Positions 612-57,530 of a DNA stretch of 64,000 bases are shown here, piece by piece. Location: the NCBI RefSeq assembly GCF_003019035.1, contig NZ_CP027448.1. One strand, written 5' to 3'. The translations under genes were made by a program, and so were the position numbers. Source of the stretch: Escherichia coli (GTDB taxonomy: Bacteria > Pseudomonadota > Gammaproteobacteria > Enterobacterales > Enterobacteriaceae). Under the pieces are notes generated by a model that saw only the letters and a program-made list of their open reading frames with translations, had not been told where the DNA came from and did no database searches. Positions within the stretch are counted from its first letter, which is position 1. Every line of letters begins with the position of its first letter.

Positions 612-708
612 TATACTCCCCGCATAGCTGAATTGTTGGCTATACGGTTTTTAGATGGCCCCGGTAATCTTTCATGTCGCCAAACTTGAAGAAGATTATC
701 GGGGTTTT
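612..708 (+). ncRNA. copA: CopA-like antisense RNA (replication copy-number control)
   Basis: Two stem-loops on the plus strand (about 620..648 and 658..704) followed by a T-run at 705..708, antisense to the repA leader; ends approximate. Confidence 0.5.
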
Positions 709-822
709 CACTTTTCTGGCTCCTGTAAATCCACATCAGAACCGGTTCCCTGCCACCTTATGGCGTGGCCAGCCACAAAATTCCTTAAACGATCAGCAAT
801 CTATCACTCACGCCTGAGATAA

Positions 823-3429: not shown

Positions 3430-3456
3430 CCTCCTCTCTCTGAGGGAGGCTTTTTT
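3430..3456 (+). terminator. Hairpin plus T-run (plus-strand orientation), role unclear
   Basis: gcctcc-loop-ggaggc followed by tttttt immediately before the finO stop region. Confidence 0.3.
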
Positions 3457-4016
3457 CATTTCTCATCAAGCACGGCCTGAAGTTCTGCCTTTATCCGGTT
3501 CTGGCGGCGGATTTTATCCAGACGCGTTGCCGCATACGCTTCCTCCTCCTGAGAAATATGCTCCGTCACATACCCTTCCGTGTCATACCGGCAGGCACCG
3601 GCTTTCATGGCACACAGATAGCTTTCTGAACGGGTGATGGCCTTCAGCGCCCTGCGCAGTTTTTTATGCGAGAGTGGGATATTCCGCTGCGCCACGTCTT
3701 CCATTAACACGTCCCGGATACCACAGGCCAGAAGCCGGGGTGTGTCACCGTCAAACAATCCCGGCCACCAGGGCTTCAGGGTGTTCACGGCCTCATCCAG
3801 CGTGGGCAGGTTCAGATAAATGGACAGCGCCTGTCTGGCCTGCGCTTTTTTTGCCGCCAGCTCCGCTTCCCGGGCTGCTTTCTCGGCCAGCTTCTGCTTT
3901 TTCACCTTCCATTTTGGTGGCGTGGTGACATTGATGATGGTTTTCCGGCTGCGGACAGGCGTCTCTCCTTCCGTTTTCCGCTTCAGTGTCAGTACAGGTC
4001 GTTTTTGCTCTGCCAT
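3456..4016 (-). CDS. finO: FinO fertility inhibition protein (RNA chaperone for FinP)
   Basis: ORF contains [40 protein letters not shown]..., near-identical to F/R100 FinO; start set at the internal Met, track ORF starts at 4091. Confidence 0.9.
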
Positions 4017-4118
4017 GCTTACTCTGACCTTCGTGAAAATATGCCCTGCAGGCCGTTGAAACAACTCATCGTAACAGGAAGTTAATTTCAACGACCTTTA
4101 ACGTATAAATACTGACAA

Positions 4119-4978
4119 TTAAAGATATTGTTTAAACCATTGTGTCTGCACAGCTACTACACGTTCAAAAAACGCGCCCTCATAAATATCATAATGGCAT
4201 GCATCAGCTTCCTCGTATAATTCCTTAGTACCAGAAGCAACAGCATCATATAATGCTCTTCCCTGTTCCGGTGGATTAACGCTATCCTGGCCGGCAATAA
4301 CAACCAAAACTGGGCACTGGACGCTGGCTGCACTCTCTGCCGGTTTATATTGCAACGTTTCCATGACCGTAAGGAAAGGTATTTTTATATCCATTTCGGG
4401 ATGCCGGGCTTTGATTTTCTCGAAGAATACCTTCGATTCATTATCACTTAGTACCCGTGTAACCCCCACAAACATCTCTTTCCCGGTGTTTTTCTTCTTC
4501 TCTGCCATTTTATTCAGCGTGGATAGAAAAGACGCTCTCTCCGATTCATTCATCTCTCCGGTAACCAGAACATCACCGTCAGCAAAAGCCAGCTGGCTGA
4601 CAATACATTTTACGCGTTGGTCCTGCGCAGCTGCACTGAAGACATGCCCCCTCCCAGCGATGTTCCCCATAACCCAATACGCTGATTATCAATACATTCC
4701 TGCTTTTCTGCCCAATTGATAACTGAAATAATATCTTCGGTCTGCATTGCAGGAACCAGACGCCCTCGTTCTCCATCACTCTCACCGAATCCTCGATAAT
4801 CAAAAGTAATCGTTGCGAATCCTGCTTCTGTGAAGGCATTCGCAAAGCAAGGGAGCAGAACATTCCTGATACCGCAAAACCCATGGCATAAGATAATCAA
4901 CGGATGTTTTATATTTCCTTCAGGAACACGAAATGTCAGGGCAATACCTTCAGAGAGTTTGTGATCCGTAATTTTCAT
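4119..4978 (-). pseudogene. Frameshifted alpha/beta-hydrolase (dienelactone-hydrolase-like) gene
   Basis: Two overlapping ORFs in different frames (4610..4978 with GxSxG elbow GLWGTSLGGG, and 4119..4670 continuing ...GHVFSAAAQDQRVK...) that read as one hydrolase if a 1-nt shift near 4620..4660 is corrected. Confidence 0.6.
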
Positions 4979-5036: not shown

Positions 5037-5783
5037 TCACAACGCCAGAATGCCCAGCACAGCCAGATGACAGGCATAGAACGTCGGGAAAAAATCCCCG
5101 GGCCAGAAACGGGGTAATGATTTCCCTGCACACGACACCAGACCAACGGTCAGCACCGTCATCACAAGACCAGCTACAGCCGCCACATCACTGATAGTAA
5201 GGTTAAGAGCAGGAATAACAGCCAGCAGGCATGTAACCAGAACCAGACTCTCCGCTCTGTATTCCGCCCGGTATACCCGGTAGCTGGCCGCTAACATCAA
5301 CACCCCGACAATACCGTAACTGGTACCGGACAAAGGCAGCCATACTGCCAGAAGCGACATAGTCCCTGCGGAACGCCACAGGCTGCGCGTTTCACACCAT
5401 GTCAGCACCTGTGCCGCAACGGCAAAGGCAAACAGGATATTCCCCTCATACCAGGGAAAGCCGGCCAGATAATATGCGAACTGGGCAATCACTGCCCATC
5501 CCCACAACCGGTTAATGGCCTCCTGCCGGATATGCGTATGACGGGACAGATTCAGCCCCCACACCAGGGCAAAAAGCGGAAAGGCTCCTCGACCGGCCAG
5601 AAACATCCACGTCTTGTCCAGATGCAGAATGCGGTTTGCATGGTCCAGTACCATCAGCACCAGTGCCACCGTTTTGATGATATCCCGCTGTCCGGGTGAC
5701 CAGACCAGCAACGACTGCAACCAGGTATCGGTCCGGGCAGCCAGTGAATCGTTACGTGTCGTGTTCGTGTTATCCGTTGTCAT
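5037..5783 (-). CDS. traX: TraX pilin N-acetylase
   Basis: ORF contains MTTDNTNTTRNDSLAARTDTWLQSLLVWSPGQRDI..., matching F TraX; start set at the internal Met. Confidence 0.9.
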   Translation of the reverse strand: MTTDNTNTTRNDSLAARTDTWLQSLLVWSPGQRDIIKTVALVLMVLDHANRILHLDKTWMFLAGRGAFPLFALVWGLNLSRHTHIRQEAINRLWGWAVIAQFAYYLAGFPWYEGNILFAFAVAAQVLTWCETRSLWRSAGTMSLLAVWLPLSGTSYGIVGVLMLAASYRVYRAEYRAESLVLVTCLLAVIPALNLTISDVAAVAGLVMTVLTVGLVSCAGKSLPRFWPGDFFPTFYACHLAVLGILAL

Positions 5784-5802
5784 CAGTGTTTGTCTTCCTG
5801 TA

Positions 5803-8800
5803 TCAGTCTCCGCCCAGGGTTTTCTCTTTCTGCAGGTCACGAACCATATCCCGCTCCATCTGCTGCAGACGCTCCTGCAGCAGATTTTCCCGGGCAACCT
5901 CCCGGACCGCTTCCCGCTCCCGTTGTGATTCACGCAGCACACTATCCGGCAGCGCGGCTTCCCGTTCAGTTATGGCAGCCCGGTCACGCTCCTGCCCGGC
6001 AATTTCCCTGACAGCCAGCTCTGTTTTGCCATCCGGCAGGTCAGGTTTGTTCTCTGCCATTTTACGGACAATTTCATCTGCGCGGCGTTCCGTTTCACGG
6101 CGGATGGCCTCTTCAGCCTGCCTCTGTGCCAGCACCTCTGCCGTGACCGGTTCGCCATTTCCGGCTCCCGGCTGGACGCTGTTGTCCGGGATATCCCCCC
6201 ACACGCGGCCACCGGTTATGGCACCGGGATTCCACGGACGGCCTTCACCGGCGATTCTTACCACCACACCACTGTCAGGATTATCACGGGCAATCCGGAC
6301 ACCATCCTGCATATTATCAGCCAGCAGGCTTTCTCCGTTACGGCTGCCCTGCAGGGCCACAAACTGTGCATCTTCACTGCCCTTCACCCGGCCTTCACCA
6401 CTGAATCCCCGCAGCCCGTTTCCGTCATCCGTGGTCAGCGGGTTCAGCCAGATACCGGCAGACTTGCCGTTACGGTCAAAAGCCGGCAGTGCCACATACG
6501 GCTGTGGGTATTTGCGCCCCGGAGCAATAAACCGTGCAGGACTGTCTCCCCCGGCCAGCCCCGCCTGACGAAGAACGGCTCGGCCTGCCGCCACGTCCCG
6601 CAGCTCCCGCGCCGTACTGAACAGCCGCTCTGCATTCATGACCTCCCGGTCCGATTTCGGCTCAAACACATCGTGGGCAGTTCCTTTCTGTTCGGCATTG
6701 TTAATGGCATCCGTCCAGCCCTGACGGTTATCGGTGTACACCTGCACATGCTGCTTCATACGCGACAGGGCCACGTAGGCTGACTCAAAGCCGGCCATCT
6801 GTTTCCGGCTGCCTTCCGTGCCTTCAAGCGCAATGGCAAAGGTTTCACTTGCCCCCTGCGCACCGTGGGCGGTGATGGCATAGGCCAGGTCAATATGTTG
6901 CTCTGCCCGCTCCTGACCGGGGCGAATCACCCGGGTCTGCTGTCCGCCCGACAGCGTGACACTGTCACCGGAAACCGCTGTCACCGTCCAGACGCTGTTG
7001 GCCACATAGCCGCGCTCCCGGTCACTCTTCGTGAAGCGCATCCGGTCACCGGTCCCCACCCGGATGGTGTCCGGGGTGTACAGTGTGACACCTTCAGCCA
7101 CCGCCTCCCGGGGCGAAATCAGCCGCGTGTTACCTTCCGCATCCTGCAGGGTTATCAGCCCGTCACCCTTACTGATACCGGCAATCCGGTGATACACATT
7201 ATCCACCAGGACAAGTGCGTCCCGATGTGTCTCCCAGGTGGAGAGACGACGCAACTCCCCGTCGCGTATATTCGCTGTGTTCAGGACAGGCACCATGACC
7301 TGCTCTTTCCCCAGCTCACCGGCCTTTTCCCGTGCATCATGAATCATGCTGTTCAGTACGCGCCGGTCCTCATTCAGGTGCGTGACAATAAGCGTCTGCT
7401 CCCGTGCTTCCGGCGTCCTGCCGGTATAGTCGCGGACAATGGCTTCATACAGTGTCATGGGGACATCCGGAAAAGCCTCGCCGTTCTGCATCGCCTTCTG
7501 CTGCGCTTCTGCCAGTTTCGCTTCCTGGCTGTGACTGAACTCCGTCACAGAGTGCTCCGGTACCCATGCGCCCTCCTGACGTGGCACCTGAGACGGTTTC
7601 ACACTCTCAAGCCCGGACAATGCCCTTTCCACATCCCGGTTAATCAGGCTGTATACCGCCTCCCGCAGTTCCGGCGTCTGACGCACAATCTCCTTCATGA
7701 TGGCCACATCGGCAGCGCTGCGCGTCTGCTGGAGACGGAAAGGCTGACCGGGCGCGATGGCCTGCAGCTGGTCCGTGTCACCGCTGGCCACTGCACGACC
7801 ACCACCGGCCGCAATCAGGGCATATGCCCGTGCCATGTCGGTATTGCCCACCATTGAGCTCTCATCGAGCAGGAACAGCGTGTTGCTGAAATCCGGCGTT
7901 TCTCCGCTGCGCAGCTGCAGCTGCGTGCCATGCAGAAAGGACGCCAGTGTCTGTGCATCCACGCCGGCGCTGCGCATCTCCCCGACCGCACGGTGCGTGG
8001 GCCCCAGCCCCACGACACGGGGACGCTCACTCTCCGGCAGCATGTTCACGGCTGACATCACCGCCCGGAACTGTGTGGTCTTACCCACACCGGCATAGCC
8101 CTGCACCACCGTGAAACGGTCGGACGTTTCCAGTATCATGCGGGTGGCGGCACGCTGTCCTGATGTCAGACTCTCCATGACTCCGCCAGGGACTCTCTCC
8201 ATCAGCGGCGTGACCGCCTCCTTACCTTCGAGAATATGGCGAAGAATGCTCTTTTCTGCCTCATACGACGCACGGGAAACCAGCAGGCCTGTGCCATAGC
8301 CTTTTGCCACATCCACATACAGTAAATCACCGCGTTTTATCTGCGCATTGATTTCCCCTCCCAGTTCAGTAAAACTGGTTCCTTCTGCAGCAAACGACTT
8401 CGCCTCTGTCAGCAGGTCCACCATGCTGAAGGCCAGGTTTTTACTTTCCAGCACAGGAAGGGCCAGATGAATGGCCTGCTGTGCCGGCGTGTGAAGCCCG
8501 GCTTTCTGCAGACTGATAGCGGTTTCCAGCAATGTCTCACCGGCACGCGCCTTTATCTGCTCAGAAACCACCGTAAAGGAGGGATGGCGGGCAAGGTTTT
8601 CCGCCGTACGGGTTTCATCCAGCGAGGAATACAGCCGGACATCACGACCGCTGCGGGCCAGACCGTTCAGGGTGGCGTTGTCCATTGCCATCTGTGTGAC
8701 GGAGGCAAAAACCTTCGCACTGTCGCTGACGGAATGCCCGGGCGTTTCCACCCAGCCGTTCTCCAGCTTCAGTGCCGTGAACGGTGAATCGCTCACAGGC

Positions 8801-11094
8801 AGGGAGGCCGGTTCAGCCCGCCCCGGCACAACAACCGTCATCGAATCTTCACTGACGGATGCCACCTGCAGGCGGTCACCGCCGGAGACGCGGAGTCCGG
8901 GAATTTTCCCTGTCACCCTCAGACGCTCGCCGTCTGCCACCGGCATTTTTTCCGGCCGGAACAGCGACCAGCTGCTGTCCAGGGAGGAAATACGCACCAC
9001 CTGCGTTTCGCCCTGCGCATCCCGCAGGGTCAGGCTGTGACTCTGCGCCGTCACCCGATCGATAACATAGAGGTCATGACTGCGTGTCTCCGGGTTCCAC
9101 TGCTCCATCACCATCCCCGGACGGTACATATCCCGCAGATAACGGCTCCGGCTGTCCAGCCAGACCGGTGACAGAGCGGTCATGGTCACCTCCGGGTGTC
9201 CGAGCACGCCCTGTGTTTTCAGCTCACTGCGAACGGCCTGTGTCAGTATGGCCTGTTCCCGTACCCCGCTGACCTGTGCCACGCTCTCTTCTCCGGCTTT
9301 CACGCTGGCCGCAAAATCTCCGGCCAGCCGGGCATAGCGGACATTACGGTCCGGTTCACTGATGATGGTGGCCGGTCGCTGTTCTCCCCCCTGCCAGCGA
9401 TATGTGTTCACCCCGGCATCTTTCATGGCCATCAGTGCACTGCCTGTACCGGTTCGCTGCCCGCTGTCGGTTATCAGGACCTGTACGTTATGACGTGCGG
9501 CACCGTCCAGCAGGGTTAACGTCTCTTTCAGGGAGAGTTTTTCGCCCTGGTCAACGATAACAGTACTGCCCAGCGTGAAGGCCATGCCTTCCAGCAGCTG
9601 ACGACGTCCGGTTATCAGCTCACCGGACAGCCGTTCATCCTGCTTCAGGTTCATCTGCGAGCGACGGTCAGCAGCGATAATCTGCACTTCCCGCCCCTGC
9701 TCCCGGGCCATCATGACCAGTTCAGCCACCCGCTCACGCTGCCCGGCTGCACCGCCCTGCCCGGACACAATGGCCAGCGACGGACGGTCCTGTGCCAGAA
9801 CACTGACGGCATCGCTGTAGCCGGCCGTCCGGGGGACACTTTTCTCCGGATGTACGGTCACCCGGTTCTGTTTCATGATATCGCGACTGAGTGCCCGGAC
9901 TGACAGTTCATCGAGCACATGAATCCCGGACGTGAACAGCCCCTTCTCACGGTCAAGGGGGATGAGTTGCTCACGGCTGATGGCCTCATCGATACCGGCG
10001 CGTGCCCGTTCAATCACACCATTTTCCGGCGGCAGTATACCGACCGTTCTGGCCAGCACGTCCGTGTACGTAAACTGCACTTTTCGTTCACTTAATCCGG
10101 CAATCGCCTGTGTCACCGCCTGCTGCACATCCGGCCCCTCCTGTGAAACAGCCCCGGGCGCCTGCGTGCGGGTCTCCGCACGCTGATCCGCCGCGTCACG
10201 ATATGCCCGGATGTCGAACCCGGTTTCCTTCAGCGTCTGCATCCATTCAGCCATTCTGACTTCAGGATCGACGTGCTGTTTGGATTTTCGCGTATCCAGT
10301 GCCGCCACATCCCGGGATTTCAGCGAGGCGTCCTCCCCGACGGCCTCCCGGATAGTCTGCGAGCGTCCAGAAAAGGCCTCCACCGGTATGCCCAGCATTT
10401 CCCACATACCGTGCTGACCCACCACTTCGGTTTCATAGCCCAGCGCCTCAACCTGCTCTTTCAGTTTTTCCCGGTAGAGCCTGCCAAAGGCAATCTGATT
10501 AGCGTACACATTCTCAATGAACCCCGTTTTCCCCACTTTGTCACTGCTCAGTGTCTTCCATTCGCCGTTATGCTGCGTGACATTAGCCACCACCGCATGC
10601 GTGTGTAACTGTGGTTCCTGATCGCGACTGGTGTCGTGGTTAAACAGTGCCATCACCAGATTACCGGTCAGCACCGTTTCTGACTGTCCGTCCGTCATCA
10701 CCCGTGTGGAGGCCAGCGCCTCCACCTGACGGACAGCAAAATCCACGGCCTGGTTATGTGCTTCAATAAGACGTTTGTCCCCCCCGAGCATGGCCATCAT
10801 GGAGACACTTTTGGGAGCGGAAAAGGTCAGGTCGTAGCCGGGACGATGCCTGTTACGGCCATCCTGCATGCGGCTTAAATCCGCCCCGTCTGGCAACCTG
10901 CCCTCCAGAAGGCGGGTAAAGACATCCTTATCGACACTGCCCTGCAGCCCCAGTTGTTCAGCCCCCTGGCCGGCCCAGCGTTCTCCCATGCTGCCCAGCA
11001 CATAGTAATTATCCTTGTCGGTATAATAGTTCCCGGCACTTCCGGCCGATCTGACCTGCGCAATACTCATCATAAACGTATATCCCTTTGACAT
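5803..11094 (-). CDS. traI: TraI relaxase/helicase
   Basis: 1763-aa ORF ...MMSIAQVRSAGSAGNYYTDKDNYYVLGSMGERWAGQGAEQLGLQG..., essentially F TraI; start may be a few codons inside the ORF. Confidence 0.97.
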   Translation of the reverse strand: MSKGYTFMMSIAQVRSAGSAGNYYTDKDNYYVLGSMGERWAGQGAEQLGLQGSVDKDVFTRLLEGRLPDGADLSRMQDGRNRHRPGYDLTFSAPKSVSMMAMLGGDKRLIEAHNQAVDFAVRQVEALASTRVMTDGQSETVLTGNLVMALFNHDTSRDQEPQLHTHAVVANVTQHNGEWKTLSSDKVGKTGFIENVYANQIAFGRLYREKLKEQVEALGYETEVVGQHGMWEMLGIPVEAFSGRSQTIREAVGEDASLKSRDVAALDTRKSKQHVDPEVRMAEWMQTLKETGFDIRAYRDAADQRAETRTQAPGAVSQEGPDVQQAVTQAIAGLSERKVQFTYTDVLARTVGILPPENGVIERARAGIDEAISREQLIPLDREKGLFTSGIHVLDELSVRALSRDIMKQNRVTVHPEKSVPRTAGYSDAVSVLAQDRPSLAIVSGQGGAAGQRERVAELVMMAREQGREVQIIAADRRSQMNLKQDERLSGELITGRRQLLEGMAFTLGSTVIVDQGEKLSLKETLTLLDGAARHNVQVLITDSGQRTGTGSALMAMKDAGVNTYRWQGGEQRPATIISEPDRNVRYARLAGDFAASVKAGEESVAQVSGVREQAILTQAVRSELKTQGVLGHPEVTMTALSPVWLDSRSRYLRDMYRPGMVMEQWNPETRSHDLYVIDRVTAQSHSLTLRDAQGETQVVRISSLDSSWSLFRPEKMPVADGERLRVTGKIPGLRVSGGDRLQVASVSEDSMTVVVPGRAEPASLPVSDSPFTALKLENGWVETPGHSVSDSAKVFASVTQMAMDNATLNGLARSGRDVRLYSSLDETRTAENLARHPSFTVVSEQIKARAGETLLETAISLQKAGLHTPAQQAIHLALPVLESKNLAFSMVDLLTEAKSFAAEGTSFTELGGEINAQIKRGDLLYVDVAKGYGTGLLVSRASYEAEKSILRHILEGKEAVTPLMERVPGGVMESLTSGQRAATRMILETSDRFTVVQGYAGVGKTTQFRAVMSAVNMLPESERPRVVGLGPTHRAVGEMRSAGVDAQTLASFLHGTQLQLRSGETPDFSNTLFLLDESSMVGNTDMARAYALIAAGGGRAVASGDTDQLQAIAPGQPFRLQQTRSAADVAIMKEIVRQTPELREAVYSLINRDVERALSGLESVKPSQVPRQEGAWVPEHSVTEFSHSQEAKLAEAQQKAMQNGEAFPDVPMTLYEAIVRDYTGRTPEAREQTLIVTHLNEDRRVLNSMIHDAREKAGELGKEQVMVPVLNTANIRDGELRRLSTWETHRDALVLVDNVYHRIAGISKGDGLITLQDAEGNTRLISPREAVAEGVTLYTPDTIRVGTGDRMRFTKSDRERGYVANSVWTVTAVSGDSVTLSGGQQTRVIRPGQERAEQHIDLAYAITAHGAQGASETFAIALEGTEGSRKQMAGFESAYVALSRMKQHVQVYTDNRQGWTDAINNAEQKGTAHDVFEPKSDREVMNAERLFSTARELRDVAAGRAVLRQAGLAGGDSPARFIAPGRKYPQPYVALPAFDRNGKSAGIWLNPLTTDDGNGLRGFSGEGRVKGSEDAQFVALQGSRNGESLLADNMQDGVRIARDNPDSGVVVRIAGEGRPWNPGAITGGRVWGDIPDNSVQPGAGNGEPVTAEVLAQRQAEEAIRRETERRADEIVRKMAENKPDLPDGKTELAVREIAGQERDRAAITEREAALPDSVLRESQREREAVREVARENLLQERLQQMERDMVRDLQKEKTLGGD

Positions 11095-11154
11095 ATCCCG
11101 GCATCAATCCCACAATGGATATACACAAGACATATCCACATAAGGAGGCAAATA

Positions 11155-11382
11155 ATGGAAACCACCGTATTTCTCAGCAACCGCAGCCAGGCGGTCAGAC
11201 TGCCAAAAGCGGTTGCATTGCCGGAAAACGTAAAACGCGTTGAAGTGATTGCTGTCGGACGAACCCGAATCATTACGCCTGCCGGAGAGACATGGGACGA
11301 ATGGTTCGACGGAAACAGTGTCAGCGCTGATTTTATGGATAACAGGGAACAGCCTGGTATGCAGGAAAGGGAGTCATTCTGA
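11155..11382 (+). CDS. vapB: VapB/VagC-type antitoxin (AbrB/SpoVT-like)
   Basis: 75-aa ORF immediately upstream of and overlapping a PIN-domain ORF; typical vagCD arrangement. Confidence 0.75.
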   Translation: METTVFLSNRSQAVRLPKAVALPENVKRVEVIAVGRTRIITPAGETWDEWFDGNSVSADFMDNREQPGMQERESF

Positions 11383-11780
11383 TGCTGAAGTTTATGCTCA
11401 ATACCAACATCTGCATTTTTACGATAAAGAACAAACCCGCCAGTGTCAGGGAACGTTTTAACCTGAACCAGGGGAGAATGTGCATCAGTTCGGTCACTCT
11501 GATGGAGCTGATATATGGTGCAGAAAAAAGCCAGATGCCTGAACGTAATCTCGCTGTGATCGAGGGATTTGTTTCCCGCATTGACGTTCTGGATTACGAC
11601 GCTGCTGCTGCCACACACACCGGCCAGATAAGAGCAGAACTTGCCCGTCAGGGACGCCCTGTCGGGCCATTTGATCAAATGATCGCAGGTCATGCCCGCA
11701 GTCGGGGACTGATTATTGTGACTAATAACACCCGGGAATTTGAACGTGTGGGCGGCCTGAGAATTGAAGACTGGAGTTGA
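11382..11780 (+). CDS. vapC: VapC/VagD PIN-domain toxin
   Basis: 132-aa ORF with PIN-like pattern (MLNTNICIF..., ...LIIVTNNTREFERV), start overlaps the antitoxin stop. Confidence 0.8.
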   Translation: MLKFMLNTNICIFTIKNKPASVRERFNLNQGRMCISSVTLMELIYGAEKSQMPERNLAVIEGFVSRIDVLDYDAAAATHTGQIRAELARQGRPVGPFDQMIAGHARSRGLIIVTNNTREFERVGGLRIEDWS

Positions 11781-11788
11781 CCTGTTCA

Positions 11789-13942
11789 TCAGAAATCATC
11801 TCCCGGCTCAACATCCTCCCCGCGCTCCCGGTGCACATTAATGTTCACCTCTTCACGACGCTGCATCTGCTGCTGGATGTCCGGATGATTTTCCTGTTGC
11901 CATGCCTCATAAGCGGCCATATCCACCACTTCACCGGATTCACTGATCCCGGGTGGCAGTTGCTGTTCCATCTCTTCTTCCGGTTTCATTTTCAGCTCCT
12001 GCTCGATCCCCCCTACCGGAACATTCACACCTGAATCTGACTTCTTATCGTTGATGGCAGGAGACACCGGCTGTTGCGGCTGTTCAGCCTGAGTCACGTC
12101 TTCTCCGGAAACAACCTCCGGGACATCCGGTTCGAAGAGGCTGGCCATCTGACGACCTTCTGCTTCCCTTGCGGCAAGTACGGCACTCAGACGGTTCTCC
12201 ATTTCCGGGTTGATGTCACGCGGAATAAACTCCGGAGCGACCTTCGGTCGTGTCTGATATTTCAGAGAGAGTTTTACTGCCGGATACGGTCCGGGCAGGG
12301 TGACATAACAGGTCAGATCCGGCAGAGACTGAATGTCGGAATAACTGACCAGCGTCTGGCGCTCCATATCCTTACCGGTCGATACCCCGTCACGTACCGG
12401 ATCAGCACCGTAGGAATACTGCTCGCTGGCTTTCAGGTGCTCTTTCTCACCAATTTCACCGGCAGCGAACTCTGCAATCTTATGGCTGGGAGAACGGAAA
12501 AAGGCACGGGTGTTCATGACGTCAAACAGCGAGGCAGCCGCTTTCTCACCGTAGATATCTTCCAGCTGGGCATAGGACTGGATACCAAACACATAACAGC
12601 CACCGAACTTACGGGCTTCCGGCAGGATCTCCACCAGGTCCGGCAGTTTGTGTAACGTGGGTAACTCATCACAGAAAAACCACACACGACGGTTACGGTT
12701 TTCTCCCATTGCCAGCAGACCACGAATGGCAATGGACAGCCACATGGAGATCACCGGCTTCAGGGAGGCATGGGTGTCGGCATTCGACGAAATAAACAGC
12801 CAGCCGTTTTTCTGATCTTCCCGGACACCACGCATCCAGTCACGGATGGTAAAAGACTCACCGTTATGCTCAATCCCCTGCAGGTAACGGATGGCTTTCA
12901 CGTAGTTGGTCAGCACAGCACGGATGGAAATCGCCGTTTTCTCAATTTTCTCTTCCACCAGGTTGGCCGCCGGTGAATTACGCAGGAAGGTACGCAGTTT
13001 TTCGATTTTGATGGAAAGCAGTGTGTCCACCAGTTTGCTGTAGCTGCGGTTGGGGTCATTACGCATCAGGTACGCCGCTTCCGCAAAAATGGTACGTCCT
13101 GACCCCTGCCAGAACGGGTCCTCTTTTGTGCCCATCGGGATCAGCGTGTTCGCGGTATTATCAAAATCCGGCTGTGTCAGGCACTCCTTCCACAAATCCC
13201 AGGCGGCACAGCGGGCATCCAGCGGATTCAGGATTTTATCGATGGAGGGATCATAGTAACTTTTAACAAATTCCCCTGAACGGTCATAAATCACCACCAT
13301 ATCTCCACGCTGACGGGCGTAGTTGGCCAGACGACGGATAACTTCCGACTTACCGGCCCCGACCGTGCCGTGCAGACAGAAGTTCTGGATTTCGGAATCC
13401 CGGATAATCGGCAGGTCGCCAATCCGTATATCGGAGTCCTTGCCGTCTTTTTTCAGCATCCGGGCAACGTCTTTCGGATTGTCTGTCAGCTGACGACCAC
13501 CTGTGACTTCATTTTCGCTCTGTTGTTTACCCTGACGCCCCAGAATCCAGGAGACAACAAAGAAGGTAATCAGGCAAATAACCAGTGCCACAACTGTGGC
13601 CAGAACGAATGCGGACCATAGCTGCTCTCCGCACCAGATCATATATTTATCATGCAGTACCTGAGCAGCATTCATCCGGAAGGTTTTGCCGTAATACTGG
13701 ATCTCATATACCGGCTGGGACTTGATTAAATCCCGCATGCCTTCCAGCGTGGTACACCACCAGTAAATACAGCCGTTCACAAACGTCTGCCAGCTTATTT
13801 TTACCCATAAAACCAGACCAACGAGTATCCAGAAAAAAATAAACAGGCAGTAAAGCATGATATTGGCGATCTGGCTGAACATGCGGATACGCATGGACGC
13901 AATCTGACCGCCCTGGGTCATATCCTTTGCGTTAAAACTCAT
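11789..13942 (-). CDS. traD: TraD type IV coupling protein
   Basis: 717-aa ORF with N-terminal TM segments, Walker A GTVGAGKS and Q/P-rich C-terminus; matches F TraD and gene order. Confidence 0.95.
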
Positions 13943-14193
13943 GATGATATTCCGAAGAAAAAAGTCAGTCGGACTGATTATTAATGATGAAAAGATTAAT
14001 AACCGTTAAATTCCGGCTTCGCCGGCAACACTTCACGGTCGCACAAAGAATTTGCACAACCGCTCAGTGTTTTCATATTTATTTCGGAAACGCCGGGGAG
14101 AAATAAAATTTATTTTATTTCTTTCCGGGGTTGGACAACGAGCAAAGCGAGGCGTCAGTCAGGAGGCCGGTCAGACCAGCCTCCGGAAGATAA

Positions 14194-14925
14194 TCAGAGA
14201 ATATTTGCGATTGATTTGGCCAGCTGGTCTTCGAGAACAGGCTTCGCCTCTTCAAATTTCAGGTTAACCTTGTTCGCACTGGAGACCACACGGGTCTGAT
14301 ATTTATGCTGGTTACCTGTTTCAGTACTGGTCTGAATTTTCGCACCTGAAGTGCCCTGACGCAGGGCGGCAACATTATCTGTTGTCACCGTTGTCTTAGT
14401 ACGCTCTGCAATCTGCACATCCGTGATCATGGTATAGTTCACATCTTCCACCATCGCATCTGCAGCCATACCCACCAGACCAGCAGCAAGGCCCACACCG
14501 AGTGTGGCACCGGCAGAATTGGAATTATATCCGGTAATACCGGCACCTAACGCTGCACCAACAGCTGCGCCTTCATAACCACGGTTCAGCCATCCCTGAG
14601 ACTCCCGCAGATCCATCTTATCGGCCTTCAGCACATTCGCCTGAATCCAGTAGTAGGCTTTATCCGGAGAAGTCACCACCTGATACCCTTTTGCTTTCAC
14701 AGCATCAGCAATTTTGCCCTGCAGCCCACTCATGTCTTTATCAGACGTGTTTTTGATCTGCAGAAATACCGTGCGTTCGCTGGCGGGTTCAAGCCAGATG
14801 GTCTCACTCATCTGGGTCTTCACCTCAAGGTTACGCTTCTTGATTGCTGTGCTCATCGCACCACACCCTGAAAGGGCCAGAGTGGAACTGACCAGTGCAA
14901 CCATCATCAATTTTTTTGTTTTCAT
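14194..14925 (-). CDS. traT: TraT surface exclusion lipoprotein
   Basis: 243-aa [50 protein letters not shown]..., matching F TraT. Confidence 0.95.
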
Positions 14926-14938
14926 CCAAAATATCCTT

Positions 14939-15448
14939 TTAACTAACAGACTCTTTTTTGAACAGCCCTATTACTGAGGCTATAGCTGAGAGATTATAAC
15001 GATTTATGTCTATAGCATAAATAAAGAAAAAGATTATAAACAAAGCAATTAATAAAAACTCATATAAGAGTGTATGGGCAAATGAAACCATTGAAAAAGC
15101 AATCAAAAATGACAAGATATAAGTTTTGTTCTTATCATACATAAAAGATATAACTTTCGACTCATCTCTGAATTTTTCAGGGATAGCAAGATACAACATC
15201 ATTCCATTAGTAATGGCAACAAAAAGGATAAAACCCATTACGCCACTAAAACATATATCAAATCCGGCATCTCGGATATCAATTTTATCTGCCAGCAAAC
15301 GAAGAAATGTTGGCCATAATAAAACCCATAAAAACACATACCCCCCTGGCTTTATGACCTGTAATAATGGCGGGATATTAACCCCGTCTACAGAGAGTAC
15401 ATCCTTTAGTTTCTGTGTCTCCATTTTTATATCATAGTGAGTGATCAT
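14939..15448 (-). CDS. traS: TraS entry exclusion protein
   Basis: Hydrophobic 169-aa ORF between traG and traT, the conserved position of traS. Confidence 0.65.
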
Positions 15449-18270
15449 AATGGCCCCTTCAGTCGTTCCTTTTTACCATCAATCATTTTTTTCACAGCCT
15501 CTCCTGATGGCTCAGGTATTATCTTTTGACTTTCTCGCTCTTCATTATATTTATTATTCTGAGATAATGCTTCTGTTTTATGGTGATTCTGCAGTTCAGA
15601 ATACTGTCCTCTTACAATATTTTCCTCGCCATGTATGCTGTTCTGAGTATCACCTATATTCCCTTTATATTCTGTGACCATATTATCAACCTGATGTTTT
15701 ACATCATTACGGATATTACTGTCCTGTGTTCTTTGATCAATAATGGCCTGATGCCCCTGATGGTCAGCAATAATATTCTGGCTGCCACCACCCGAAGGTA
15801 CGCTCTCCATTCCTTTACCAATATCGCCACGGGATTCACGCCAGGCATTATCAACACCAGGTTGTACCTGTTCTTGCACAAAAGACCATGCCATCGCCCG
15901 ACGGCGTTCTGCAATCTCCGGTGAACTGGTGTTTGTCAGAATAGCTTCTGCATACTGCGGCGCGTGTTTCATCACATACTGTGCAAACTGTTGCGACAGG
16001 TCTTCACTCATCTGCCCACTCATGCTTTCAGTACGGGATGCCATTTCAGCATATTCATGGCTGCGGGTCATATTCGTCGTGTACTGGTCGTAACTCTGTT
16101 TCGCTGAGTTCAGGGCTGCAGACAACTGGTCCACGCGGGAATCGGCATTATTGTCAGTATGGCTTCCGGATTCACTGACTTTGCGACTGGTAAAGTAATC
16201 GCTGGCCTCTTTAAAGTCCTTACTGGCTCTAGCGTCAATATCATGGCGAGCATCATGGGAAGCCCTGCTGCCACTACTGGCTTCATGTGAGTCCAGATCA
16301 CTACCGTCAATACTGGCTCGCCCACCAACCTTAGCGCCAACATCAACACGCACACCAAAAAGGCTGGGCTTTGCATCTAATCCGGCATGAGCATCACCAT
16401 ACAATCCAGCTGATGCAGTCGTACTTCTCGATGCCAGTTCTCTTGTCGCCTGCTCATTACTGATATTATGCGCCTTCGCATAGCTTTCCACTGCACTGCG
16501 CATACGGCTGGCCATCATGGAGTCCTGAGCACTCATCGTGCTGTCAGCACCACCGGTGACAGAATCACTGCTCCCCCGGTTAGAACCAAACTGACTGAGC
16601 GTGTTCCAGGCACTGGCAATACTGCTGCTGAACCCATGCAGGGCACTTTCTGCTCTGTTCGATGCTTCCCGGGCCATTTCCTGTTGTGCCGCCGCAATCT
16701 GACGCGTTGCATTGATGCCGACCGGTAACCGGGACATCGCTCCGCTTGCATCCATCACCATATTACCATCACGGGTCTGTGTGGCGGTTGCGCCACTGCC
16801 GGTCTGGTACATCATCTGACCAAACGACGTGGTGCTGTTGGTGCTCCAGCTGAAGCCGTTCACGTTCTCCGTCTGCATGTTGCCGTAGGAGTAATTACCG
16901 TCAACCACACTGCCTGCTGCACTGGCGGTCGGGCTGATAGCAGAGGAAGCGAAATGGCTGTACACACTGGAAAATCCTGCCCCGAGCCCCCTGACCATCA
17001 TCCAGGATAATGGCGGGATCATCATGGAAAGATACCCGGCAGTGGAAGCCAGATCGGAGTATTTCAGCTGTATCTGTGAAATTTCCGAGAGCACCACCGG
17101 TGCACCATTCTGCTTCGCATAAAATGTCATGGCGCTGTTCAGAATGGCGTACAACATTGGCCATGACTGCAACCACATCAGGGCAAACACATAGCCTTTC
17201 AGGACGGACAGCGTCAGTTTGTTGAAGACAGCCGCCAGTACCAGGAGCGGGAAAATACCGATGGCGATCCCCGTCAGGATGGTCTGCGTCATGGGCAGTG
17301 TCCGCATCGCCACATGACCGATGGAGACATGTGCCAGACGTTGCTTCTCCATCGATGATGTGGTGGCCAGATTCACCAGGCTGGCCGAATCACCATTACG
17401 TGCGGCATAACTGGTGATCCCCTCCTTCAGCGCATTGATGGTGACATTCTGGCGGATGATCTGGCTGGCTGATTTACTTGAGCCATAGAAGTAACTGTAA
17501 CTGTCGCCAATCAGCGTACTGAACAACAGGTTCGGATCAGGGCGTCCACCAAATAGCTGCTGGGCATAATAATGCCATGTTTTTCCGCCACTCTGTGTGT
17601 CCAGATTCAGCTTGTCTTTCAGCGAAACCGACGCGTCCTTACAGGTCACGAAATTATTATTGCTGTCATAAACGCCCCGCAGCGGACTGGGGCGGGAAAA
17701 AATCAGCGTGTAAGGATCAGCGGAGGCCATCAGTTCCTCCAGCGTGTATTTGTGGTTCAGGTAAATATCCCCCATCACGCAGTTCTGCACATAATCCTGG
17801 AAAAGATTGGCGATTTCCGGATTACGGGACAAAAAGTCGGTGCTTTTTGATACCAGTTCTGCGCCAAACAGCATCCCCGTTTTGCTGTAGGTGACACTGT
17901 CCGGTTGCGTGAAGATCATCTCGTAACTGGCCACCATTGCATGCCCGATACGGGTCGTCAGTGAAAGTGGCATCGCCAGTCCGACCGGCACATTATCCAC
18001 CCGGTGAATTTTGACCAGGTCACTGTTATCAATAATCTGCACCGATGTGCGGACATTAACCAGCAGGCTGATAAGCACAAACACGGCCACCCAGCCCAGC
18101 AAATCCATCACGTTGTGCCGCTGTACCCACATTACGGCCACCGCTAGAACAGACAATGTGAGCGCAATTTTTTCAATGGAATCCCACGTCCGGGTCCCCA
18201 TAAAGGCGGCAATGGCATTCAGGTTATTCCGCAACCACTCACCACCGGCAATCACATAAACTTCATTCAC
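15445..18270 (-). CDS. traG: TraG mating-pair stabilisation protein
   Basis: 941-aa ORF, size and position as F TraG. Confidence 0.9.
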   Translation of the reverse strand: MNEVYVIAGGEWLRNNLNAIAAFMGTRTWDSIEKIALTLSVLAVAVMWVQRHNVMDLLGWVAVFVLISLLVNVRTSVQIIDNSDLVKIHRVDNVPVGLAMPLSLTTRIGHAMVASYEMIFTQPDSVTYSKTGMLFGAELVSKSTDFLSRNPEIANLFQDYVQNCVMGDIYLNHKYTLEELMASADPYTLIFSRPSPLRGVYDSNNNFVTCKDASVSLKDKLNLDTQSGGKTWHYYAQQLFGGRPDPNLLFSTLIGDSYSYFYGSSKSASQIIRQNVTINALKEGITSYAARNGDSASLVNLATTSSMEKQRLAHVSIGHVAMRTLPMTQTILTGIAIGIFPLLVLAAVFNKLTLSVLKGYVFALMWLQSWPMLYAILNSAMTFYAKQNGAPVVLSEISQIQLKYSDLASTAGYLSMMIPPLSWMMVRGLGAGFSSVYSHFASSAISPTASAAGSVVDGNYSYGNMQTENVNGFSWSTNSTTSFGQMMYQTGSGATATQTRDGNMVMDASGAMSRLPVGINATRQIAAAQQEMAREASNRAESALHGFSSSIASAWNTLSQFGSNRGSSDSVTGGADSTMSAQDSMMASRMRSAVESYAKAHNISNEQATRELASRSTTASAGLYGDAHAGLDAKPSLFGVRVDVGAKVGGRASIDGSDLDSHEASSGSRASHDARHDIDARASKDFKEASDYFTSRKVSESGSHTDNNADSRVDQLSAALNSAKQSYDQYTTNMTRSHEYAEMASRTESMSGQMSEDLSQQFAQYVMKHAPQYAEAILTNTSSPEIAERRRAMAWSFVQEQVQPGVDNAWRESRGDIGKGMESVPSGGGSQNIIADHQGHQAIIDQRTQDSNIRNDVKHQVDNMVTEYKGNIGDTQNSIHGEENIVRGQYSELQNHHKTEALSQNNKYNEERESQKIIPEPSGEAVKKMIDGKKERLKGPL

Positions 18271-35784: not shown

Positions 35785-36471
35785 TTATTTAACACCATAA
35801 AATTCACGAATTATACTTAATAGCGAATCTATTTCTCCTTTATATATACATGACACTCTGAATAAATCAAAGTGTTCAAAAAACTCTTTTATTTTCCGTT
35901 TAACTGGTTTAATTCGATCCTCAGATGCTCTGTCTGTAATACCCAATTCTCTGGCAATTGTTGCGTGACCAACACCCAGCATATAAAAAGAGAAAACAAC
36001 CAATGTTCCTGGAGAAAGATCATTCCATATCGTTAATTGACCAGAAGTATTTGTATTACTTACACTCTGATTTAACGCAAAAAATGGATAATCAGGAAAC
36101 GGATTAATTTGCCATAAAACAACAGATTCGTCATTATAAAAAGAAACATTCTCCATCCTTATCTGATAGATTTCGCCATGAAAATTAAAACGACGACAAA
36201 ATGCAGAGCCATGTCCAAGAGCCTGGCATTCCAGTTCAAGTGATGAAAGAAAAATTTCAACCTGCAGACGTATATAACTCTCTCCGGATAAAGGTTTATC
36301 TTCTCTGGAAAAGAGTTCAATAAAAGCCCCATTGGCATAAAGGATTTTCCGGTTTTTGTTACGGACACAAACCGGAACGGGAGAATTTCTGTAGATATTC
36401 TGAACGTTAAGGATGTATTTATTTACAGATTGACTGTTTAGTGGCCTTTCTCTACGATCCAGCGCACACAT
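35785..36471 (-). CDS. traJ: TraJ transfer-operon transcriptional activator
   Basis: ORF contains [38 protein letters not shown]..., which I recognise as an R100-type TraJ allele; GGAGG Shine-Dalgarno before the ATG at 36471. Confidence 0.8.
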
Positions 36472-36540
36472 AGGAACCTCCAGTAAGGATTCTATGGACA
36501 GTCGATGCAGGGAGTTACAGCTCCCTGCATCGGCGATTTT
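36466..36540 (+). ncRNA. finP: FinP antisense RNA
   Basis: Plus-strand sequence antisense to the traJ RBS and start, with stem-loop gatgcagggag-ttacag-ctccctgcatc followed by ggcgatttt; ends approximate. Confidence 0.55.
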
Positions 36541-36660
36541 CAGTTTCAATTTTTAACGTGGTATTAACCACATAATTAATATACTAATTATCTGACGTAT
36601 TGTCATCTTTTTGAATCATAAAAATTCTTATATTTGAACCAACTCAAACTTCATTTTCAT

Positions 36661-40413: not shown

Positions 40414-40572
40414 CTACTTACCGGATTCGTAAGCCATGAAAGCCGCCACCTCCCTGTGTCCGTCTCTGTAACGAATCTCGCACAGCGATTTTCGTGTCAG
40501 ATAAGTGAATATCAACAGTGTGAGACACACGATCAACACACACCAGACAAGGGAACTTCGTGGTAGTTTCAT
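40414..40572 (-). CDS. hok: Hok-family membrane toxin
   Basis: Manual minus-strand translation gives [52 protein letters not shown]. Confidence 0.9.
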
Positions 40573-40630
40573 GGCCTTCTTCTCCTTGCGCAAAGCGCGG
40601 TAAGAGGCTATCCTGATGTGGACTAGACAT
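40418..40630 (-). CDS. mok: Mok (modulation of killing) overlapping reading frame
   Basis: 70-aa ORF overlapping hok in another frame, the canonical hok/mok arrangement. Confidence 0.65.
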
Positions 40631-40670
40631 AGGGATGCCTCGTGGTGGTTAATGAAAATTAACTTACTAC
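40600..40670 (+). ncRNA. sok: Sok-like antisense RNA (approximate)
   Basis: Inferred from hok/sok architecture, antisense to the mok start region; boundaries not resolved. Confidence 0.3.
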
Positions 40671-40851
40671 GGGGCTATCTTCTTTCTGCCACACAACACG
40701 GCAACAAACCACCTTCACGTCATGAGGCAGAAAGCCTCAAGCGCCGGGCACATCATAGCCCATATACCTGCACGCTGACCACACTCACTTTCCCTGAAAA
40801 TAATCCGCTCATTCAGACCGTTCACGGGAAATCCGTGTGATTGTTGCCGCA

Positions 40852-41571
40852 TCACGCTGCCTCCCGGAGTTTGTTCGGCACCATCCACCGCTCCATCTCA
40901 CGGACAGCGTGACCGGCCTCTCTTGCTGCAAGACTGGCTTCCGCAATAACCTGCCAGAACGGCATATCCTGCCACTGCCAGCGTTCCATTCCGGCCAGTG
41001 ACGGAAAACGCTCGCCCCACTGCCAGAACAGGGTTTCCAGGTCATGCTCTGCCACCCGGTCACTCCAGCGTGCATGCCAGCTTCCGACTGTTTCCGGCGA
41101 ATGGAATGCCAGTTCGATTTCAGCCTGAGCGACCAGCGCCTGGTACGCACGGGCTTTCTGCTCTGCCTCCCTCGCCTGCTGGCGGCTGTACTTCTGCATG
41201 ACCAGCGCGGATTTATGGCGACTGCGTTCCCTGACACGAAACCGCACCGACGGGAACAAGCGCTCTGCTGCATCACCGGGAAGGGGAAGGAGGCAGACCT
41301 CGCCCTGTGTTTCAATCAGCACATCGATGGCATACAGCCACTGAAGACGGTTGCCGTGCAGTTCTTCTGCGGTCAGGGACGGCATGAAAAATCGCAGGTC
41401 AGACAGCGATATCCTGCGGCTTCCGTTCAGACAGCGGAAAAACGCCCCCGCATACGGATATTCAGCCAGCGTGTTACCCTGATGGCGGCGTTTTTCGGTC
41501 TCCGCCACCGCCCGCCATACGGCCTGTTGCTCTGTGCTGAGGGGAACCAGTGCCTGTGAACGTGCGCTCAT
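40852..41571 (-). CDS. psiA: PsiA
   Basis: 239-aa ORF directly downstream of psiB, as in F-like leading regions. Confidence 0.85.
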
Positions 41572-47801: not shown

Positions 47802-48032
47802 TCAGTTAAAAGCGCGTTTCAGTTCGAGTGTGCGGAGCACCTGCCCGAAGGCCGTGTTTTTCATGGCGGGGATGTGTACACCACGCCCCCGGTGAAAACT
47901 CCGGGCTATGTGTCGCCCGAAGGCTTTCAGCACGGGGTCAATTTCCGGCGCGGGGATGTCTTCGCGTCTGAAACGGGGATGACGGCGGGGCTTTACAGCC
48001 GCTGCGGAAGGTGAAACAATACTTACCGTCAT
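47802..48032 (-). CDS. Small hypothetical protein (76 aa)
   Basis: First ORF downstream of repeat copy 3, co-oriented with the operon; no family recognised. Confidence 0.4.
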   Translation of the reverse strand: MTVSIVSPSAAAVKPRRHPRFRREDIPAPEIDPVLKAFGRHIARSFHRGRGVHIPAMKNTAFGQVLRTLELKRAFN

Positions 48033-48264
48033 AAATGAAACTCCTTATGACTGTTGAATGGAACCGCAGAAACTGCTCGAACAGTTTTTGCGGTGTGGAT
48101 TAAGCAGGTCCTCCCCGGCCTGCTTTTTTCATATCTGCGTCTGACGTTCTCCGGTGTTTTCCTCCTTCTGTTCCTGCGTTCTCATTACCTGCCAGCCGGA
48201 TGACTGACAGAACAAATAAATGCGTATTGCCGGAGCCTGAAATAAATCCTGATTTTTAAAGAAC

Positions 48265-55301: not shown

Positions 55302-57530
55302 TTATCTGACTACAATATTGATATCGTTTTCCGCAACAATCAGCATCACGGCAGGTAAACCCTCCACACGCATTTTCTGGTGTAATTTTTTGATTAAATT
55401 ATCATCTTCATTACTGGCTTTTGCGGAAAAGCCTTGTGGATGGGAGTGCCATTCGCCAACATAATCGACAACACGAGCGGTCAACTGGTGAACCCGTTCT
55501 AATGCTTCTTGTTGTCCCGCTTCTCCCCGGACAAAGGAGGCTGGAGAGGATTTACTGTCGATAGGTTCAGGGAGCACGTCAACCAGAATAATCGTTTTGT
55601 TCTTAAAATCTGTTATGCCAACAATTGCACCTCCTGTTTCATTAGGCAGTGCCTGTAAGCGGGTGTGCTGCAATTTTTGCGCTAAGCCCTGGTCATATTT
55701 AACAACCCATTCGCCAGAAATTATAGATACCACGGAATAGAGTTCAATTTCATGTGCATCCATCGCGCCTGATATTTCATCAGATACCCAGATACACAAT
55801 CGAGCATTTCCTTTGAGTGCAGTCTGGCGAAGTTGGCGTGAGAGGATACCGGCATGAACATGAATACATTCACTGGACATACGTACAGAAATATCCCGAC
55901 ATCCACCACCGACCCAACGATCGCCATAATTGTGCTGTAGGTGAGTACTTCCCCACTCACTGCTCAAAATTGCCCGATAGTATTGCCCCTCAATTGCATC
56001 AATTCGGCATTGTCTGTCTACATCCTCCATTAACATCACGCTAGACTGACCCGATGGAGTCAGAAACAGGCTAACTATTCTGGGTATATCATCTTTTAAC
56101 ACTAGAGTCCTCGGCACCTCAAAGGTGGTACTGACATCCACAACTAAGTCTGCCTCATTCATTGCCTTAGCAATATCATCATCGTCATCAAGAATACTTT
56201 TATGGATCGCCTGAGGGAGGGGCTCATGCGGATAAATAGATTTGGCAATATGCTGAATAATATGGGGTTTTGAGACTCCAATATGACAATCAAACCCAAT
56301 ATGGCGAGACAAATTATGTGGAAGAAGCCGATCTGGATCAATAAAAGTCCATGTCCCCCACCCCATTCGAATCCAAATATCAGCCAATGTACTACCAAGA
56401 GCGCCAACTCCAGCTAAAATACCTCGAAAAGCTGCACTCTCTGAATCAACAGCAGATATGTCTCTCGCATGTGTGGCCTTCATAGCCGAACGTATTTCAA
56501 CTGGTAAAAGCGGTAATTGTCGCCACTTGGTACTAATTGATCCGCCAAGAAGCCGTACGCGATGCTGTACTCCTCGCTCATTTTTTGGCGCCAGCATATC
56601 TAGTGCAGTGGCAAGTTCACCGAGTGAACTTTGCACAACATAGCCCATCACATCCGTACGTTCTGTTTCTCCGTTTCTTAGACGGGGGATCCAAAGCAGG
56701 ATAAGTAAGCCTTCTCCTTTACCAGACGTTGGGCGGATACCATCACTTGGTATTGCTTCATAAACAGCGTCAGTTAGTGGTTTTAGGAGCTCACTTCCCC
56801 ATTCATTAAGTTGTTCTTCTAATTTTCCCAGATTATCCGGGTATGTAGCCACCGTAGAAACATCGACAGGAGGAACAGCAATAGTTAATAAGCGAAATGG
56901 CTTAACGCTTGAGGTATCTTGTTCTGGTACAGCCCTTAAAATAATCGGTCGCCCCTCACTGACCATCTGGAGACTGAGCTTATTGTCAGTCGCGTGATGA
57001 TAATCGGGGTAATTGGCTGGCAAAATGAGCTGATAGGGACTCAAATAAAAAAGTTGCTCAAGTGGCTGATCTTCTCGATGTAGATGCAGTTCGGCCGATT
57101 CTCTAAGCCACCAAAAAATGCGCTCAAGGAATCTCTCGGGGGTCCAACTGCGCTCAACTGCGCTCCAGGAGGCCTCATATAGGCAAAGAATTCGTGGTGA
57201 GCCAGGTTCTCCAGCATGCTGGTGAGAAAGAACAGGGAAATCTTTCCGCAATGCATGAACCAAGATAGGTATGCTTGATTTGGGATTGACCTCAATAGCC
57301 AATCGTTCTTTACGACGAATACGGGCTTGATTACCAGAAGCCACAGTCCCATCAGCAGCATCAATGATTAGATATTCCGAGCGGTTATCATTTATTTCAG
57401 AAAATCGTAATTCTCTGACTGTGACGTAAGGATGATTCTCGCATGCTTTAAGCAGCGAAATCGTTTGTGGATAAAGGCTATCGCGCCCCGATGAATCGAG
57501 GCGCTCACCCAATTCGAAATATTCGATCAT
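55302..57530 (-). CDS. Fused E2-like / E1-like (ThiF/MoeB) / JAB-MPN peptidase protein
   Basis: 742-aa ORF: N-terminal H...C pattern (HQHAGEPGSPRILCLY, UBC-like); central Rossmann GILAGVGALGSTLADIWIRMGWGTWTFIDPDRLLPHNLSRH (E1 signature); C-terminal JAMM-like EWHSHPQGFSAKASNEDD. Confidence 0.75.
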   Translation of the reverse strand: MIEYFELGERLDSSGRDSLYPQTISLLKACENHPYVTVRELRFSEINDNRSEYLIIDAADGTVASGNQARIRRKERLAIEVNPKSSIPILVHALRKDFPVLSHQHAGEPGSPRILCLYEASWSAVERSWTPERFLERIFWWLRESAELHLHREDQPLEQLFYLSPYQLILPANYPDYHHATDNKLSLQMVSEGRPIILRAVPEQDTSSVKPFRLLTIAVPPVDVSTVATYPDNLGKLEEQLNEWGSELLKPLTDAVYEAIPSDGIRPTSGKGEGLLILLWIPRLRNGETERTDVMGYVVQSSLGELATALDMLAPKNERGVQHRVRLLGGSISTKWRQLPLLPVEIRSAMKATHARDISAVDSESAAFRGILAGVGALGSTLADIWIRMGWGTWTFIDPDRLLPHNLSRHIGFDCHIGVSKPHIIQHIAKSIYPHEPLPQAIHKSILDDDDDIAKAMNEADLVVDVSTTFEVPRTLVLKDDIPRIVSLFLTPSGQSSVMLMEDVDRQCRIDAIEGQYYRAILSSEWGSTHLQHNYGDRWVGGGCRDISVRMSSECIHVHAGILSRQLRQTALKGNARLCIWVSDEISGAMDAHEIELYSVVSIISGEWVVKYDQGLAQKLQHTRLQALPNETGGAIVGITDFKNKTIILVDVLPEPIDSKSSPASFVRGEAGQQEALERVHQLTARVVDYVGEWHSHPQGFSAKASNEDDNLIKKLHQKMRVEGLPAVMLIVAENDINIVVR

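Follow-up and report, generated by a model that had tools for sequence, protein, structure and literature searches.

The traD-traI junction of this F-like plasmid carries, against the direction of the tra operon, a small gene pair described in an earlier note as an AbrB-type antitoxin and a PIN-domain toxin, and the locus raises the question of whether the pair still works as an addiction system and whether it is coupled to expression of the transfer genes. The window analysed is the whole stretch of 64,000 nucleotides of Escherichia coli contig NZ_CP027448.1 (assembly GCF_003019035.1). Both flanking genes, traI (relaxase/helicase, 1756 aa from the MMSIAQ start; 5803..11073) and traD (coupling protein, 717 aa; 11789..13942), are located on the minus strand. 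The true start of traI was taken at 11073, as in the F annotation, and the listed open reading frame (ORF) reached the upstream ATG at 11094. The gap thus defined is 715 bp, close to the 700 bp given in the note. On its plus strand lie vapB (75 aa; 11155..11382) and vapC (132 aa; 11382..11780), so that the placement of the pair at 11155-11780, opposite in direction to traD and traI, was correct to the base.

VapB matched the NCBIfam model TA_anti_VapB (NF040493) at 1.1e-32 and, just above the cut-off, Pfam MazE_antitoxin (AbrB/SpoVT fold) at 2e-5. VapC matched the NCBIfam model of tRNA(fMet)-specific endonuclease VapC (NF010285, 7e-87) over residues 1-132 of 132, and its PIN-domain fold was recognised by Pfam PIN at 3.3e-19; the nature of both proteins was therefore borne out. 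The best PDB matches of the two proteins were the solved VapBC structures of F, S. sonnei, and S. flexneri, with E-values near 1e-83 for VapC, and VapB was identical at 75/75 residues to 9H6A_B (F) and 6SD6_A (S. sonnei). One source name still attached to this protein is "Uncharacterized protein in traD-traI intergenic region". VapB residues Q12, R64, and Q66 are all wild type, R64 and Q66 being the C-terminal residues that occlude the active site; the roles of Arg64 and Gln66 in blocking the VapC active site have been described (PMC3384007). A Shine-Dalgarno sequence of vapB, AGGAGG, is present at 11143-11148, and the TGA of vapB and the ATG of vapC share 1 nt (11380-11384), giving a coupled bicistronic order with the antitoxin first. 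Since the family matches are far beyond chance, the identity as vapBC is firm, and by sequence the locus is a canonical vapBC (mvpAT/vagCD) type II toxin-antitoxin cassette of F-like plasmids.

The same gap carries on the minus strand an ORF of 239 aa (11070..11789), "trbH" in older annotation, and the strand opposite to vapBC could be supposed to hold the real gene, vapBC being then a chance antisense reading. This ORF spans the gap, stays open also in Salmonella plasmid pSLT, and is annotated in older records (AF386526), but a search of Pfam with it returned no family match. The coding strand was examined by comparing the cassette of the window with the collinear cassette of pSLT (716 bp vs 716 bp, 104 differences). 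The codon differences were 22 synonymous and 5 non-synonymous for vapB and 44 and 6 for vapC, altogether 66 and 11, indicating strong purifying selection, whereas the trbH frame had 24 and 66, respectively. Inside vapBC, third positions of its codons account for 68 of the 83 substitutions. This substitution pattern, together with the absence of a family match, identifies vapBC as the protein-coding content of the gap and leaves trbH without protein-level selection; VapBC in addition has solved structures and a demonstrated function. Reading trbH as the gene of the gap thus retains a negligible probability and was rejected, and trbH is probably not a gene. The tra mRNA includes the trbH strand of the cassette, and from Shigella an antisense RNA, as-trbH, has been reported.

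The traI start and the vapB start are separated by 81 bp, in which the vapBC promoter and two palindromic operators are packed. The promoter (11088..11116, plus strand) consists of a -35 box TTGACA (11088-11093), a 17-nt spacer, and a -10 box CACAAT (11111-11116); it is kept at the homologous position in pSLT, and its position agrees with the legend of Fig. 5 in PMC3384007. Both operators fit the pattern G(G/T)ATAT-N9-ATATCC. The one overlapping the -35 box (11072..11101, GTATAT-N9-ATATCC) is identical at 30/30 positions to oligo DNA III, and the one adjoining the -10 box (11112..11141, GGATAT-N9-ATATCC) at 29/30 positions to oligo DNA II, these being EMSA-tested oligos of Shigella vapBC (PMC3384007). 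The two elements are accordingly similar in sequence to tested sites and are predicted to be VapBC octamer sites, each overlapping one of the two promoter boxes. The first operator has one end inside the start codon of traI and takes in the Shine-Dalgarno sequence of this gene, the ribosome-binding site of traI in this plasmid being supplied by the vapBC cassette. At the other end, the stop codons of vapC and traD are 8 nt apart and the 3' ends converge, leaving no room for a terminator between them; a search for a vapBC terminator gave no convincing candidate, only a weak hairpin inside traD (11951-11968). No promoter of traI or as-trbH was accepted within the cassette, because the sole minus-strand consensus match (11449 to 11421, 9/12) is absent from the homologous pSLT sequence and was taken as chance. 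A literature search on a traI-specific promoter in F returned nothing relevant.

The traD-traI interval was compared across F-like plasmids using a 1.2-kb query, comprising the cassette and both flanks, against PLSDB, in which 4,203 records matched. The whole cassette with both flanks was found collinear in 1,160 of them (about a quarter), and the site was empty in the other 3,043 (about 72%). Compared with the empty-site plasmids, the cassette (11074..11789) is an extra 716 bp, made up of 712 bp and one TCAT unit of the 4-bp direct repeat that bounds it at 11070-11073 and 11786-11789. In empty-site plasmids (loci L005-L007) the TGA of traD overlaps the ATG of traI; the insertion thus removed this stop/start overlap and replaced the ribosome-binding site of traI. 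This vapBC occurs in 1,172 PLSDB records, 1,165 of them with 80% or more of it, a number close to the 1,160 records with both flanks; nearly every copy thus seems to be located at traD-traI, the traD/traI remnants of Shigella pINV included. In the F plasmid itself (NC_002483.1), vapB and vapC occupy the traD-traI gap and point the same way. No complete plasmid equal to the present one was found in PLSDB, the best match being 97.5% over the first 25 kb. The arrangement is already known: an AbrB-type antitoxin and a PIN toxin antisense to tra between traD and traI have been published (PMC4285173, PMC5065971, PMC11796401), pSLT vapBC2 was described as "encoded within the trbH gene" and homologous to mvpAT (PMC5065971), and for VapBC of the F plasmid both a structure and tolerance mutations are available (PMC11796401; PDB 9H6A-D). 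The published names are mvpAT, vagCD, and vapBC2, and the place is given as "inside trbH" or "traD-traI intergenic region". The cassette and its position are thus of textbook level for F-like plasmids, nothing new arises on architecture, and what is new is confined to D7N, a vapC allele altered at the catalytic site and occurring naturally in one plasmid lineage.

Codon 7 of vapC (11400..11402, plus strand) reads AAT (Asn) in place of the GAT (Asp) of its relatives, owing to a G to A change at 11400, so that VapC starts with MLKFMLNTN instead of MLKFMLDTN. The closest relative, pO177A2, differs in 781 bp by this change only, leaving VapC identical at 131/132 and VapB at 75/75 residues; in the antisense trbH frame the change is synonymous (ATC to ATT, Ile). 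The active site of VapC has been defined as D7/E42/D98/E119, with D7A as the standard non-functional control (PMC8923223), and this quartet is incomplete here (N7, E42, D98, E119). Loss of the PIN acidic residues had been named in the earlier note as evidence against its proposal; E42, D98, and E119 are intact, but Asp7 is lost. The locus is a vapC allele by descent, but whether it counts as a working toxin is doubtful. Asp was found at position 7 in all 119 homologue representatives having a residue there, from 120 clusters of 72-98% identity. With a 72-nt probe over codon 7, the D7N allele was found in 0/959 plasmid records and 0/772 complete E. coli records, the best matches all being 71/72. 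Changes D7A, D7G, D98N, and E42K on the same VapC backbone gave no hit in a collection of 15 billion proteins. Two of the VapC representatives, P0081 and P0059, have broken catalytic residues, E42A (cluster size, 31 sequences) and D98I, and several further cluster representatives are shortened proteins; these cases suggest that toxin inactivation recurs in the VapC family.

In the public collection, the exact D7N protein was detected on 86 draft contigs (119 indexed blocks), with assemblies GCA_020350545.1 and GCA_012647285.1 among its carriers; its D7 counterpart, with no other difference, and the F allele were each on at least 1,000 contigs. The D7N contigs that were read have one common neighbourhood. 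Contig GCA_020350545.1 is 100% identical to the window over 5382-17780 (12.4 kb, 0 mismatches), and in another the sole difference from the window is an indel of 11 nt. The 86 contigs and the 100% match over 12.4 kb therefore ruled out that the substitution is an artefact of the window or a sequencing error. Based on the number of contigs, their one neighbourhood, and their near-identical sequence, D7N is real, having arisen recently by mutation in a single plasmid lineage and then spread. In view of the essential lack of sequence diversity, it may be a very recent hitch-hiker, neutral or slightly deleterious, rather than a selected state.

Asp7 helps to hold an active-site water contacted by VapB Arg64 (PMC3384007). 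VapC(D7A) is non-toxic, yet in excess it still releases VapBC from the operator (PMC3378870), which indicates that the regulatory role survives the loss of the D7 carboxylate. A natural VapC of pAA1070 with Asn at an active-site position was non-toxic by experiment (PMC11950199). The same substitution exists as an engineered Shigella VapC D7N (PDB 5ED0), an entry without VapB. Among the papers searched, none paired "VapC" with "D7N". D7N is reported to be one of three catalytic-site mutants that Xu et al. (2016) crystallised without the antitoxin.

Among the closest known systems, VapBC of the F plasmid (PDB 9H6A-9H6D; PMC11796401) has the same site, orientation, promoter, and operators and an identical VapB. 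The F cassette differs from the window by 3 nt in 781 bp, and F VapC has D7, V43, and L89 where the window has N7, L43, and R89, position 7 alone touching the active site. MvpAT/VapBC of Shigella pINV (PDB 3TND, 6SD6) is 96-98% identical in DNA and is located between remnants of traD and traI, the tra operon of pINV being largely deleted. It has the same operators, EMSA-tested, its VapC cleaves initiator tRNA, and pINV is stabilised chiefly by this system. Asp7 is retained in the natural alleles of Shigella, where D7N is present only as the laboratory construct. In Salmonella pSLT, VapBC2 (vagCD) fills the junction with a collinear cassette of 716 bp that is 85% identical and preserves the half-sites of the operators. 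The divergence is greater, the two proteins together differing at 11 residues; D7 of VapC is kept, and the system modestly stabilises pSLT (PMC5065971). Two plasmid type II toxins, VapC of pAA1070 (PMC11950199) and CcdB of pSLT (PMC5065971), are naturally non-toxic, being disabled by one residue with operon and antitoxin intact, but they belong to other loci or families and the changed residue is other than in D7N; the pAA1070 VapC is a 133-aa paralogue adjoining ccdAB and not the traD-traI cassette.

In wild-type copies, as known from F, pINV, and pSLT, VapC acts as a Mg2+-dependent PIN endonuclease cutting initiator tRNA, and VapB wraps VapC and inserts Arg64 and Gln66 into its active site. 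A VapB4C4 octamer represses its own promoter at the two operators; VapB is degraded by Lon, and upon plasmid loss VapC is set free, leading to post-segregational killing, by which the pINV and pSLT homologues stabilise their plasmids. In the present lineage a single G to A turns the catalytic Asp7 into Asn. The product, VapC(N7), would be non-toxic or nearly so, and would still fold, dimerise, bind VapB, and act as co-repressor. The locus would then autoregulate and produce VapB without enforcing plasmid retention, and stability would rest on other systems such as the hok/sok of the window. Judging from the D7A results, the invariance of the residue, and the general chemistry of PIN domains, VapC(N7) is likely non-toxic; for D7N we infer the loss of toxicity and of the addiction function together with the retention of complex formation. 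Taken as a whole, the locus is likely explained as a vapBC allele whose toxin is dead but whose two proteins still form an autorepressing complex.

The chief competing explanation is residual activity. Since Asn remains a weak ligand of Mg2+, some activity of VapC(N7) is possible, and even a low level might suffice for killing on loss of VapB. If D7N keeps enough nuclease for this, the cassette is a fully functional addiction module and the substitution a harmless polymorphism, in keeping with the isosteric nature of Asn and Asp, the three of four acidic residues and all VapB contact residues that are intact, and the persistence of the allele on 86 contigs. Such a module is nevertheless unlikely, considering that D7 is invariant in the 119 representatives and in about 1,700 complete records, that D7A abolishes toxicity (PMC8923223, PMC3378870), and that the natural Asn in the active site of pAA1070 VapC goes with a non-toxic protein (PMC11950199). 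Retention of a toxin-free VapBC for another job, rather than its decay, appears improbable. As an anti-addiction module, its VapB would neutralise the VapC of competing F-like plasmids during displacement; as a pure DNA-binding complex, its operators on the ribosome-binding site and start codon of traI would tune traI relative to traD.

The earlier note had further proposed that head-on transcription of vapBC and tra might couple addiction to transfer, putatively by collision. In such a model, tra expression would lower the supply of VapB, or vapBC expression would limit traI. The geometry is real, with the vapC and traD stops 8 nt apart and no terminator between, an operator covering the traI ribosome-binding site, and the as-trbH transcript of Shigella, and expression of traI from the main tra promoter requires antisense reading of the whole cassette. 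Against this, F carries an identical layout. F is derepressed and highly transmissible and transfers at high frequency. About 72% of F-like plasmids have no cassette, traD and traI overlapping instead, and the cassette is therefore dispensable for transfer. Its constant orientation follows from a single ancestral insertion, as indicated by the collinear cassette with 85% identity in pSLT. In the present plasmid finO is intact, and tra is thus probably repressed in most cells; moreover, if VapC(N7) is dead, no addiction function is left to couple, as is probably the case in this copy since the acidic residue Asp7 of the PIN domain is lost. Coupling by collision thus found little support and is highly improbable.

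With the toxin-dead, autorepressing allele as the favoured explanation, D7N is of modest interest as a toxin that is probably disarmed. Annotation pipelines label the D7N vapC as a functional toxin although an invariant catalytic residue is gone, a caution that homology alone gives no ground for counting toxin-antitoxin genes as functional addiction systems. If the toxin is dead, the lineage would provide a natural experiment on the persistence and spread of an F-like plasmid without VapC activity, and would show whether VapB with an inert VapC has a value of its own.

The window includes a second post-segregational killing system, hok/sok (40417-40746, minus strand), located in the leading region adjoining psiA (40852-41571), with a hok ORF identical to the queried Hok at 52/52 residues and a sok RNA (Rfam, 88.9 bits). 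A tblastn search of the window for a second vapBC, ccdAB, pemK, and relE, any of which might account for tolerance of a dead toxin, found only hok, the ccd, pem, and rel queries being approximate and the negative result accordingly soft; hok/sok may help to carry the stability of the plasmid. The finO gene (3456-4091, minus strand) appears intact, covering model positions 1-186 of 186 at 3e-108; in F it is interrupted by IS3. FinP and the traJ 5' UTR are also present (36465-36573), and together with the apparently intact finO they indicate that the plasmid is probably fertility-repressed. Between finO and traX, an ORF of 183 aa (4119-4670, minus strand) matched, below the cut-off, only positions 105-285 of the 285-position model of UilS-family lactonases, and may be a truncated or mis-started hydrolase gene.

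The window opens with an IncFII-type replicon, recognised from a CopA-like antisense RNA (624-713, plus strand; Rfam, 97.8 bits). Two other plasmid antisense RNAs, AS-traG (17466-17551) and AS-pc01 (48027-48128), both on the plus strand, matched above the Rfam gathering score, so that antisense transcription in tra and leading-region genes has curated precedents here. At 60275-63535 (minus strand), three consecutive overlapping ORFs were found, of which those of 439 aa (60275-61594) and 350 aa (62483-63535) showed similarity to tyrosine recombinases (Xer-like); the 316-aa ORF between them gave no match, and by these similarities the set resembles a recombinase trio. At 55302-58714 (minus strand), two adjacent ORFs matched the NCBIfam equivalogs of the anti-phage "6A-MBL" system, a cap2_3 protein of 742 aa (2e-198) and an MBL-fold enzyme of 395 aa (1.4e-127), and from these matches the pair is predicted phage-defence cargo on an F-like plasmid.
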